Positions 10,913 through 14,791 of a stretch of 64,000 nucleotides of DNA are shown in pieces (position 1 is the stretch's first letter; every line of letters begins with the position of its first letter). Position numbers and translations under genes: made by a program. The notes under the pieces are model-generated. The model saw only the letters and a program-made list of their open reading frames with translations. It did not search any database and was not told the origin of the DNA. Source of the stretch: Trypanosoma brucei (Eukaryota); assembly GCA_000002445.1 (NCBI GenBank), contig CP000071.1, forward strand, positions 832,001-896,000. Reading direction: 5' to 3'.

Positions 10913-13900
10913 ATGCCGCTATACAATATCACTATTCATCCGCTGAAGCTTGCTGCGCACTTCTGCAAACAGGGTTGTTCATACGTTGTCGTTGTTAACC
11001 GTAAGGGGGTGGAGCTGGCGACAAAACCCGCCATGTGTACCGTTGCCGATGAGGTGGCCTTCAGCACACCGGCGGAACTGAACCAGACCCGGACATTTCA
11101 ACTTGCCTTCGACTCACCCAAGGACCGACGTATGATCCAGTTTGCTATGTACGACGTTACCAATCCGAAGCATAGCATAAGGATCACAGGATTTGAAATC
11201 CCACTTGCGGGGATGTGCAGTGTGCTTGCCGGTGAGTCCATATGCGAAAGGAAGGCTGTCTCCTTCCGCATTTCTGGAAGGCCGGGGCGGTTGGACGTCA
11301 TTTTCCGCATGCACCCCACTACGAGCCCCGTACCCCCTCTGACGTTGTATGCGGGGCCGGCAACAGGTTCTGGAGGAAGCAGCTCACCAGTGGAAACAGT
11401 TCGCCTCCCCGCGCGCACCGTGGAGGTGCTTAAGAAGGTTGGTGTACTACCAAAAGATGTGGAAGAAGTTGAGGTGGACGCTGTCATCGCCCAGGAGGTT
11501 GTTGTGCGCACTTCCATGTTGTTTCCCAGTGAGGCCGAACTGCGTGAACGTGTGATGACGCTCGAACGTGAGGTAGCCCAACAGGAGTATAGCGTGCGGT
11601 ATGCTTCAAAGGACAGTGTGTCTTCAGGTTCGGCCGCTTGTGTTGCGCTGCGTAGCGAGCTTCAATACTGGAAGGACACTGTAGAAAGAGTGAATCTACA
11701 GTCAGCGCAAGAAACAGGGATTGCGTTGTTGCTTAAAGCTGGTGAAGAGGGTGAACACGACGACGGCAGTCGCGCCCTCATAGCCGATGTTGAAGGGCAA
11801 CTGGAGGAGGCGAGGAGAGAGCTAAAGACCATAGAAAGATCCCAGAATGATGAAGAGTTGAACACGAAATTAATTCCACTTCTCGGGCAGGTGGAGCAGT
11901 TGGAGGAGCTACTGGAACACCTCCGGAAGGAAGTACATGTACCACCCAAGACTGCGGGATCTAGTGAGAAAGCTGACGTCGTAGATCAGTGGGAACAACT
12001 TGCGCGCGAATTATTCGACAAGGAGCTGATGGTTGAACAACTTATGCACACAGTTCTTACACTCAACCAACTTCAGTTTGAACCATATCCTGCCGCAATT
12101 GAGATGGGCGCTGTTGGGGATACGCCATGTGAACTACAGTTCGTGCGTGACAACAAGAGACAGTTGAAGAACCTTCCTCAGGTCCCCACTCCTAAGCAAG
12201 CCACCGATCTCGCAGCAGCCTCCGGCGGTCCCACCAGTGACAACCTGCTGAACGATCTCTTCGGTTGTCCATCTCCCCCAAAACCAGTTCCACAACCGAC
12301 GGTACAGGCCGACGAGGTGACATCACAACCGCACTTCGAAAGAGAAAACGGGGGGCTTCCAGGCGCACCATCTGTTTTTTCTAGCGGTGTGGCCCCAATT
12401 TGGGGGCAAAAGCCAGTGGGGGCACCCCCCCAAGATGACGCTATGCAACCAGCGGCCACGGCAAACACTCTAGACACCACCGATGGCAAGGTCGGCGACA
12501 GCATGGCGTTCGAAAAGAAAACAACTGAACCGCAAATTATGGTCTCCGCCGGTCTTGCTGCAGCCGCCGCATCACCACCTGACACCCAAAACGGACAGCA
12601 GCTATCATTCCCATTTGACTCGAAGCAGCAGGGTCCAACACAGGGACAGCAGCAACCATTCCCATTTGACTCGAAGCAGCAGGGTCCAACACAGGGACAG
12701 CAGCAACCATTCCCATTTGACTCGAAGCAGCAGGGTCCAACACAGGGACAGCAGCAACCATTCCCACTGGGTTCGCAACAGCAGGGTCCAACACAGGGAC
12801 AGCAGCAACCATTCCCATTCGACTCGAAGCAGCAAGGTCCAACACAGGGACAGCAGCAACCATTCCCACTGGGTTCGCAACAGCAAGGTCCAACACAGGG
12901 ACAGCAGCAACCATTCCCATTTGACTCGAAGCAGCAGGGTCCAACACAGGGACAGCAGCAACCATTCCCATTTGACTCGAAGCAGCAGGGTCCAACACAG
13001 GGACAGCAGCAACCATTCCCATTTGACTCGAAGCAGCAGGGTCCAACACAGGGACAGCAGCAACCATTCCCACTGGGTTCGCAACAGCAAGGTCCAACAC
13101 AGGGACAGCAGCAACCATTCCCACTGGGTTCGCAACAGCAAGGTCCAACACAGGGGCAGCAGCAACCATTCCCATTTGACTCGAAGCAGCAGGGTCCAAC
13201 ACAGGGACAGCAGCAACCATTCCCATTTGACTCGAAGCAGCAGGGTCCAACACAGGGACAGCAGCAACCATTCCCATTCGACTCGAAGCAGCAAGGTCCA
13301 ACACAGGGACAGCAGCAACCATTCCCACTGGGTTCGCAACAGCAAGGTCCAACACAGGGACAGCAGCAACCATTCCCATTTGACTCGAAGCAGCAGGGTC
13401 CAACACAGGGACAGCAGCAACCATTCCCATTTGACTCGAAGCAGCAGGGTCCAACACAGGGACAGCAGCAACCATTCCCATTTGACTCGAAGCAGCAAGG
13501 TCCAACACAGGGACAGCAGCAACCATTCCCACTGGGTTCGCAACAGCAAGGTCCAACACAGGGACAGCAGCAACCATTCCCATTTGACTCGAAGCAGCAG
13601 GGTCCAACACAGGGACAGCAGCAACCATTCCCATTTGACTCGAAGCAGCAGGGTCCAACACAGGGACAGCAGCAACCATTCCCACTGGGTTCGCAACAGC
13701 AGGGTCCAACACAGGGACAGCAGCAACCATTCCCATTTGACTCGAAGCAGCAAGGTCCAACACAGGGACAGCAGCAACCATTCCCATTTGACTCGAAGCA
13801 GCAAGGTCCAACACAGGGACAGCAGCAACCATTCCCACTGGGTTCGCAACAGCAAGGTCCAACACAGGGACAGCAGCAACCATTCCCATTTGACTCGAAG

Positions 13901-14791
13901 CAGCAGGGTCCAACACAGGGACAGCAGCAACCATTCCCACTGGGTTCGCAACAGCAAGGTCCAACACAGGGACAGCAGCAACCATTCCCACTGGGTTCGC
14001 AACAGCAAGGTCCAACACAGGGACAGCAGCAATCATTCCCATTTGACTCGAAGCAGCAAGGTCCAACACAGGGACAGCAGCAACCATTCCCATTTGACTC
14101 GAAGCAGCAAGGTCCAACACAGGGACAGCAGCAACCATTCCCATTTGACTCGAAGCAGCAAGGTCCAACACAGGGACAGCAGCAACCATTCCCACTGGGT
14201 TCGCAACAGCAGGGTCCAACACAGGGACAGCAGCAACCATTCCCACTGGGTTCGCAACAGCAGGGTCCAACACAGGGACAGCAGCAACCATTCCCATTTG
14301 ACTCGAAGCAGCAGGGTGTACCGCAGACCCCGTCAGTGCCAGGACAACAGCAGCAATATATGGCCCCTCCAGAGACACCTGTTCCTCGGTATGTGCGACG
14401 TCCACTAGCGTCGGGAGTGTCTCCCTTTGCTCCTTTTATTAACATTCCCCTCGTAGCACGTGCTTGTCCCCTGGATATTTACCTTGATGGGCAGACCCCT
14501 ACACGCGGCACAGAGATTACCATTCAGAACAATGGTGGTTTTGACATTACTATTGGTGGGGTGGAGCTGCGGCAGGAAGACATGACATCAACTTCGCCGC
14601 ACGCAGGTCAAACTGTTCCCATACGTCGCTGGCCACAACAAATGCACGTACCGCGCGGCGGCGGTCGCGCTACATGCATTATTGCGCTGCACCCAAGTTA
14701 TGCTCGGGGGAGTTCGCTCATCCTCCTGGTCGTGGTGTATGTGCTGAATGAGGGTCGTTATACACCTTTTGCCGCCCGTTTTCCAGTATAG
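10913..14791 (+). CDS. Large repeat-containing hypothetical protein (1292 aa): N-terminal globular region, a coiled-coil segment, 34 tandem 17-aa repeats [17 protein letters not shown] / [17 protein letters not shown], and a C-terminal about 150-aa domain
   Basis: ATG at 10913; single long ORF through the repeats; codon usage consistent with neighbouring genes; heptad-like [17 protein letters not shown]...[12 protein letters not shown] segment. No family recognised by eye. Confidence 0.6.
12605..14320 (+). repeat. Tandem array of 34 x 51-bp coding repeats in two variants, F (cccatttgactcgaagcag...) x22 and L (cccactgggttcgcaacag...) x12
   Basis: Counted from the sequence. Order: FFFL FL FFFLL FFFL FFFL FFL FFL FLL FFFLL F. 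Synonymous sub-variants (cattcgac / cagcaagg) are also visible. The last unit degenerates into QQGVPQTPS. Confidence 0.9.

Follow-up and report, generated by a model that had tools for sequence, protein, structure and literature searches.

A 51-bp in-frame repeat array in the disordered region of the clathrin-associated protein TbCAP141 of Trypanosoma brucei

Monomeric clathrin adaptors carry repeated motifs in their disordered tails, such as the DLL/DLF motifs of AP180/CALM, the DPF motifs of Eps15 and the NPF motifs of epsin. TbCAP141 of Trypanosoma brucei, which is encoded in a 64,000-nucleotide stretch of contig CP000071.1 (assembly GCA_000002445.1, positions 832,001 to 896,000 of the forward strand; hereafter the window, whose own numbering is used throughout), resembles these adaptors in having a folded membrane-addressing N-terminus, a long disordered tail and many aromatic cores, the latter supplied by a 51-bp tandem array. 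It differs from them in that sequence homology is lacking, that the array contains none of the canonical motifs, that its one conserved DLF motif occurs a single time and elsewhere in the protein, and that an extra folded domain closes the polypeptide; binding by the repeat is putative. The trypanosomatid antigens GM6, K39 and CRA/FRA share with TbCAP141 a long homogeneous in-frame array in an intracellular protein, although TbCAP141 belongs to the endocytic machinery and is not of the cytoskeletal or kinesin type. Like the higher-order repeats of alpha-satellite DNA, the array interleaves two unit types and holds a few near-identical multi-unit blocks, but its units n apart are no more similar than neighbours at any n. 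The array is interpreted here, with a probability of about 0.7, as an in-frame, lineage-specific expansion of the Gln/Pro/Gly-rich disordered region of TbCAP141 that would act through its bulk properties. This figure blends the identity and anatomy of the gene, which are near-certain, with a bulk-property mechanism that stands at about even odds.

The array-bearing open reading frame (ORF) occupies 10913-14791 on the + strand, stop codon included, and encodes 1292 amino acids (aa). Its product is identical, by exact protein look-up, to XP_847114.1, AAZ13048.1 and UniRef100_Q57W90 of T. brucei brucei TREU927; the first-pass annotation, made from the letters alone, was therefore right to see a coding repeat in a trypanosomatid gene. 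The three TbCAP141 cloning primers of Manna et al. (2017, J Cell Sci 130:1379, PMC5399782) have one match each in the window, all with 0 mismatches: the forward primer at the start codon (10913-10938), the reverse primer over the last sense codons (14771-14788, - strand) and the residue-440 reverse primer at 12214-12232 (- strand). The calculated mass of the product, 141.1 kDa, is that expected for TbCAP141 (~141 kDa). Given the exact protein match, the three primer matches and the mass, the gene is, as judged from its sequence, TbCAP141 (Tb927.8.2820). The protein has already been published, and as coding repeats of trypanosomatids go the array is ordinary. TbCAP141 was isolated together with clathrin and colocalises with it, occurs only in kinetoplastids and their relatives, and was described as a cytosolic protein with a monomeric-adaptor-like architecture (PMC5399782). 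It is essential for endocytosis: uptake of transferrin and concanavalin A depends on it, RNA interference blocks uptake and enlarges the flagellar pocket, and coated-pit maturation also needs the protein (PMC5399782). In T. cruzi, isolations of clathrin and of EpsinR brought down the orthologue (PMC4977521). The tandem repeat is mentioned neither in the main text of PMC5399782 nor in any other searchable paper.

Tandem Repeats Finder (TRF) reports a single array at 12593-14317, with a period of 51, 33.8 copies, 92% matches, 0% indels and a score of 2792, and this is the only tandem repeat scoring at least 150 within the window. The phase of the unit is arbitrary; a parse in the gene frame starts at 12605 and yields 33 complete 51-nt units (12605-14287), followed by a 34th (14288-14338) that is divergent beyond its 30th base. 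Taken as 33 full units and the initial 30 nt of the 34th, the array runs from 12605 to 14317 on the + strand, in keeping with the 34-unit, 51-bp coding repeat noticed at first reading. The units are of two 17-aa types, the F-type (PFPFDSK..., 22 units with the partial one included) and the L-type (PFPLGSQ..., 12 units), and their order along the array is FFFLFLFFFLLFFFLFFFLFFLFFLFLLFFFLLF, exactly the string given at first reading for the two peptide variants. Nine distinct 51-nt sequences make up the array, unit-to-unit identity within its 1.7 kb is 88-100%, and the repeat-encoded stretch measures ~575 aa, for which the earlier figure of about 580 aa was fair. Hence ~45% of TbCAP141 is one homogeneous 17-aa repeat.

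Variation between units falls into two classes. The minor polymorphisms comprise three synonymous sites, which bear out the synonymous sub-variants proposed before, namely column 12 of the unit (TTT/TTC, with TTC in two units), column 27 (CAG/CAA, which split the 33 full units 17 to 16) and column 42 (GGA/GGG, in one unit), and a single non-synonymous site at column 1 (P>S, units 1 and 29). In the sense frame three out of four are thus synonymous (Fisher p=0.02). The difference between the F- and L-types is of another kind: it consists of 6 nt, all of them inside a 12-nt core (columns 10-21), the rest of the unit being free of F/L differences. Within the core, three codons carry two changes each (F>L, D>G and K>Q) and no intermediate units occur, a clustering expected for six random differences in so short a span with p of about 0.001. 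An external template for the L-type core was not found within the window, and the core may have arisen by a single complex mutation or through selection upon it.

The array lies between folded regions, as the first-pass annotation had proposed when it placed a low-complexity middle between a structured N-terminus with a coiled coil and a C-terminal domain. The N-terminal 135 aa (10913-11317, + strand) show the eight-stranded beta-sandwich of the C2 fold. This clear C2 fold goes beyond the degenerate C2 domain for which PMC5399782 found 'very weak support'; no Pfam C2 family (C2 or NT-C2) matched these residues at E<=1, yet the UniProt entry is labelled 'C2 NT-type domain-containing protein'. 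The Pfam 'Clathrin' model scored below threshold in the N-terminal half (E=0.021, 15 bits where the cut-off is 29.6) and was disregarded. The remainder of the 'N-terminal folded domain', up to residue 440 (11318-12232, + strand), is mainly helical with predicted coiled coils, according to the secondary-structure predictions and the 1-440 construct of PMC5399782, its boundary being the primer end at 12232. At the other end of the protein the last 143 aa (14360-14788, + strand) form a conserved domain with 75% mean column identity across 15 orthologues, modelled as an all-beta sandwich with a predicted local distance difference test (pLDDT) score of 84 and a predicted template-modelling score of 0.79. 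In the account of PMC5399782 everything after residue 440 is a large disordered C-terminal region, whereas here the final 143 aa are confidently modelled as a folded, conserved beta-sandwich and not as disordered tail. A Foldseek search with the domain returned nothing at E<=0.001 (best E 1.3e-3), and the fold is a generic Ig-like sandwich, with adaptor ear domains among the matches but without specificity to ears. The fold class includes peptide-binding ears and MSP domains; since the search gave no match at that threshold and the fold is generic, an ear-like, peptide-binding role suggested by the model is a lead only.

The disordered region between the N-terminal C2 and helical membrane/pocket-targeting module and the C-terminal sandwich spans 698 aa, most of which is the array, and is composed of 32.5% Q, 17% P and 8.7% aromatic residues. 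Its non-repetitive portion contains two conserved short motifs, both upstream of the array. The first, LLNDLFG (aa 445-451, 12245-12265, + strand), is by its sequence a DLF-type candidate clathrin-binding motif. Clathrin-binding motifs have been reported in the disordered region (PMC5399782), and LLNDLFG would presumably be the same as the motif described there. The second, PIWGQ (aa 495-499), lies at 12395-12409 on the + strand. Across the family the pattern [LF]L[DN]DLF[GADS] is present in 24/24 orthologues, with G or A at the final position in all but two, and P[VI]W[AGT] is present in 22/24, mostly 40-55 aa after the DLF motif (72 in one). These family-wide motifs are thus upstream of the array in T. 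brucei and none is inside it.

Comparison with the orthologues shows the extent of the expansion. From LLxDLFG to the C-terminal domain, T. brucei has 698 aa where 14 complete orthologues have 149-346 aa, so that the disordered region is 2-4.7 times as long as theirs, and among the compared orthologues it is the highest in Gln and aromatic residues. Repeats in the orthologues sit just upstream of the C-terminal domain with units and periods of their own. The closest relative, P0001, has at least 5 copies of an 18-aa unit, after which its model shifts frame and is cut short; T. melophagium has 3 copies of 34 aa, T. cruzi and T. cruzi marinkellei have 2.4 and 3.9 copies, respectively, of 17 aa, and P0023, which is Leishmania-like, has 7.2 copies of 18 aa. 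Other lineages hold unrelated Q-rich, aromatic-containing repeats at the equivalent position, and no tandem repeats were detected in T. rangeli, L. donovani, Phytomonas and the most divergent members of the family. In BLASTP the T. brucei units matched the P0001 and T. theileri repeats only at E>=1, units of different species thus not being alignable, and the idea that the L-type unit is ancestral through resemblance to orthologue repeats was rejected on that result. The T. brucei repeat and the disordered region upstream of it gave no match among 5.8 billion cluster representatives. The N-terminal query retrieved no other T. brucei-group protein. The profile of the C-terminal domain, run against 1.84 billion proteins, gave nine strong matches with kinetoplastid-type architecture and one distant protein (P0031); the latter is a 674-aa relative of the same architecture with two LLxDLF motifs and a weak match to the C-terminal domain (E 1.7e-5), and the CAP141 family may extend past the close kinetoplastid set. 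The P0001 model reads one repeat in two or three frames before its truncation, the T. vivax model ends at 453 aa and that of T. theileri is partial. The gene models of these relatives break at their own repeats, and public repeat lengths in those species are therefore unreliable.

On the preferred reading, the array would have grown one unit at a time, through replication slippage or unequal recombination, and now and then by duplication of 2-6 units, and concerted evolution would keep it homogeneous. Selection would hold it in frame, in line with a period that is a multiple of 3 and the lack of indels, while leaving the minor variant sites largely silent. The product would be a long flexible tether, or a crowding agent, between the membrane-addressing module and the C-terminal domain, to whose bulk role weak multivalent aromatic contacts might possibly be added, and its function would not pass through a conserved sequence-specific motif. 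Such a role fits the proposal of Manna et al. that molecular crowding by disordered regions leads to membrane curvature (PMC5399782). Several points weigh against this reading. Deletion of the disordered region, after which pocket localisation was unchanged, addressed localisation and not function (PMC5399782). Neither the discrete, perfectly linked F/L haplotypes, with their six changes in 12 nt and no intermediates, nor a spacing of the two types more even than random (p=0.026) is predicted by a purely bulk or compositional role; both the discreteness and the spacing could reflect selection on a sequence-specific core. Finally, unit count and order come from a single Sanger-era reference assembly.

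The main alternative to a bulk role is therefore a sequence-specific, multivalent one, in which the FPxx[ST] core of the units (PFPFDS/PFPLGS) would constitute an array of short linear motifs binding clathrin, some other endocytic protein or the C-terminal sandwich of TbCAP141 itself. It would explain better than bulk properties the discrete F/L cores and their even spacing, and it agrees with the confinement of all F/L differences to the core, with the clathrin association and adaptor-like architecture of the host protein and with a C-terminal fold class that includes peptide-binding domains. Furthermore, FPxx[ST] is also a repeated element in the closest orthologue, P0001 (SLFPGPT), and occurs once each in T. 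melophagium and T. theileri. The core is missing, however, from orthologues of the T. cruzi clade and from most of those in Leishmaniinae, for which reason it was rejected as a family-wide motif, and the repeat units themselves are not conserved between species. No canonical endocytic motif is found in the array either: a regular-expression scan of the whole protein detected no clathrin box, DPF/W, FxDxF, NPF, WxxF, PWxxW, gamma-ear motif or LLGxL, and none of the three [DE]L[LF] matches (aa 332, 366 and 448) falls in the array. Published evidence that the repeat binds a coat or accessory protein was not found in the searchable literature. A motif array of this kind, whose 34 copies would work in the manner of the DLL/DLF motifs of AP180 or the DPF motifs of Eps15, is accordingly considered unlikely. 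In its most specific form, the 34 FPxx[ST] cores would make up a lineage-specific array that binds clathrin, an endocytic factor or, in trans, the C-terminal sandwich, and this is less probable still. If that were true, TbCAP141 would be a scaffold or condensate-forming hub aiding the very fast clathrin-mediated endocytosis of African trypanosomes, and the even interleaving of the two unit types would be functionally selected. African trypanosomes are not known to possess the AP-2 adaptor, and the FPxx[ST] array might in that case compensate for its absence.

The order of the units has a bearing on how the array grew. The first-pass annotation had proposed that it is non-random and results from amplification of blocks of 3-5 units, and this claim is weakly supported: spacing of the two types (p about 0.01-0.03) and an excess of similar blocks (p about 0.014) support it, but there is no fixed period at any lag. 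A true higher-order repeat, in which an ancestral block of 3-5 units such as FFFL was amplified and then blurred by gains and losses of single units, would account for runs that are capped at three for F and two for L (p about 0.007-0.01, with the statistic picked after the data had been seen) and for a count of F units separating one L unit from the next that varies less than it would by chance (variance 1.44, expected 3.90; p=0.026). It would also account for the several occurrences of FFFL, for the TTC sub-variant appearing twice and each time being followed by an identical L sub-variant, and for blocks that are almost the same, since units 5-10 and 14-19 have one mismatch across 306 nt and units 12-15 show a single difference in 204 nt from the adjacent units 16-19. 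Pairs of 4-unit windows with at most one mismatch number 9 versus 2.65 expected in shuffles (p=0.014), and near-identical 3-unit pairs 24 versus 13.5 (p=0.013). Against a higher-order repeat, a runs test on the F/L order gave 19 runs where 16.5 are expected (p=0.23). Agreement of F/L by lag, followed over lags 1-11, showed no periodicity (best-lag p=0.85 over lags 2-11), and in the DNA distance over lags 1-16 the lowest z was -1.38, at lag 5 (best-lag p=0.75 over lags 2-16 against shuffles). The numbers of distinct words of 2 to 5 units and the longest repeated word gave p=0.06-0.4, and neither exact block matches nor k-mer diversity reached significance (p=0.08-0.4). TRF reported no period of 153-255 bp, and a search with 300-nt blocks found no recurrence above 96% identity. 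Moreover, the order tests are several and non-independent, and the significant ones are partly post hoc. A higher-order repeat is therefore a tentative possibility, to be placed on the improbable side. The array is without a regular super-repeat; a few multi-unit duplications (2-6 units each) are probable, and the F- and L-types are spread more evenly than by chance, with modest support given the number of tests.

The order tests, as well as the unit count, depend on the reference sequence, and an array collapsed, expanded or mis-ordered in the assembly has to be weighed. A 1.7-kb run of units that are nearly alike is hard for Sanger or short reads; the short-read assembly of one public run breaks at the array edge, 44 nt 5' of the C-terminal-domain ORF, and in the orthologues the repeats upset the gene models, with a frameshift in P0001 and truncation in T. 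vivax and T. theileri. That short-read contig is the one other sequence of the locus to have been retrieved. Against an artefact, the frame is kept perfectly and without indels, the ORF reads through into the conserved C-terminal domain, and the variant units anchor the assembly. The full-length ORF was also amplified with flanking primers, the product size being absent from the text (PMC5399782). Taken together, these points make an assembly artefact doubtful. In the databases, the 90% cluster of TbCAP141 consists only of the reference protein and a 143-aa short-read fragment, and exact look-up of the full protein matched no contig. Short-read assemblies break at the array and read counts across it may be inflated. 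A table in an RNA study of CTR9 depletion lists a value of 1801 for Tb927.8.2820 versus 9-135 for most neighbouring genes in the same column (PMC3332058), a value that may be inflated by reads multi-mapping within the array.

The homogeneity of the array can also be looked at from the side of the host, since trypanosomatid tandem-repeat proteins are frequent serodiagnostic antigens, GM6 being an example (PMC3808341). With its high copy number and high unit identity, the repeat might owe its main significance to being an immunodominant B-cell antigen. TbCAP141 is, however, cytosolic and essential for endocytosis (PMC5399782), antigenicity would be a side effect and not a function, and serology for Tb927.8.2820 or CAP141 is not reported in the searchable literature. 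This explanation is thus very unlikely to be the principal one.

The repeat leaves a further trace in the other reading frames. Four of the six frames contain no stop across it and a fifth only two, so that long overlapping ORFs exist because the repeat unit lacks stops. The three that had been listed and held to be artefacts lie exactly where they were placed and are indeed spurious: an antisense ORF at 12178-14445 (- strand; 755 aa, ATG start, Cys-rich translation, 76% within the array), a +2-frame ORF at 12483-14408 (+ strand; 641 aa, 90% within the array), which overlaps the validated frame, and an antisense ORF at 12537-14405 (- strand; 622 aa, 92% within the array). A fourth, missing from that list, lies antisense at 12605-14032 (- strand; 475 aa, TTG start, 100% within the array). 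That one of them, for example 12178-14445, might be a real second gene is suggested by its length, its ATG start and the fact that three of the four minor polymorphisms are synonymous in the antisense frame too. The synonymous-site pattern does not separate sense from antisense, however, as one antisense frame shares its wobble positions with the sense frame and looks equally constrained in consequence. Trypanosome genes are transcribed as long same-direction units, and the ORFs around TbCAP141, from 6281 to 21813, are all on the + strand, a run in which an antisense gene would be out of place. Three quarters of that ORF is repeat, while the sense frame runs on into domains conserved across kinetoplastids and its product was tagged and detected by mass spectrometry (PMC5399782). 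A second gene is therefore hardly conceivable.

On the same strand, the neighbours of TbCAP141 encode an XRN-family 5'-3' exonuclease (7490-10477, +) and a CAF1-family ribonuclease (20053-21813, +). Beyond them lies a cluster of small RNA genes (22289-29838) with ten transfer RNAs, the 7SL signal-recognition-particle RNA (29030-29255, -) and a U3 small nucleolar RNA (29696-29838, +), followed by coding ORFs on the - strand at 33608-44193. A tandem array of at least four ORFs occupies 50711-58063 (+), with starts at 50711, 52704, 54724 and 56744, ~2.0 kb apart, and the ORF at 52704-54503 matches glycosyl hydrolase family 47 (mannosidase) with E 3.7e-109. The first 5000 nt of the window (1-5000) are AT-rich, with a GC content of 0.32-0.41 versus about 0.50 elsewhere, and contain no long ORF.

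The claim of a higher-order arrangement is too weak to build on without long-read data from several strains. The additions made here to the published description of TbCAP141 are modest: a repeat that makes up ~45% of the protein, a disordered region 2-4.7 times longer than those of its orthologues, a C-terminal sandwich and a clear C2 fold. Nevertheless, the array, the C-terminal sandwich and the C2 fold matter for the design of truncation and complementation constructs and for the choice between crowding and motif-array models of adaptor tails, in a process, trypanosome endocytosis, which is relevant both to drugs and to immune evasion.

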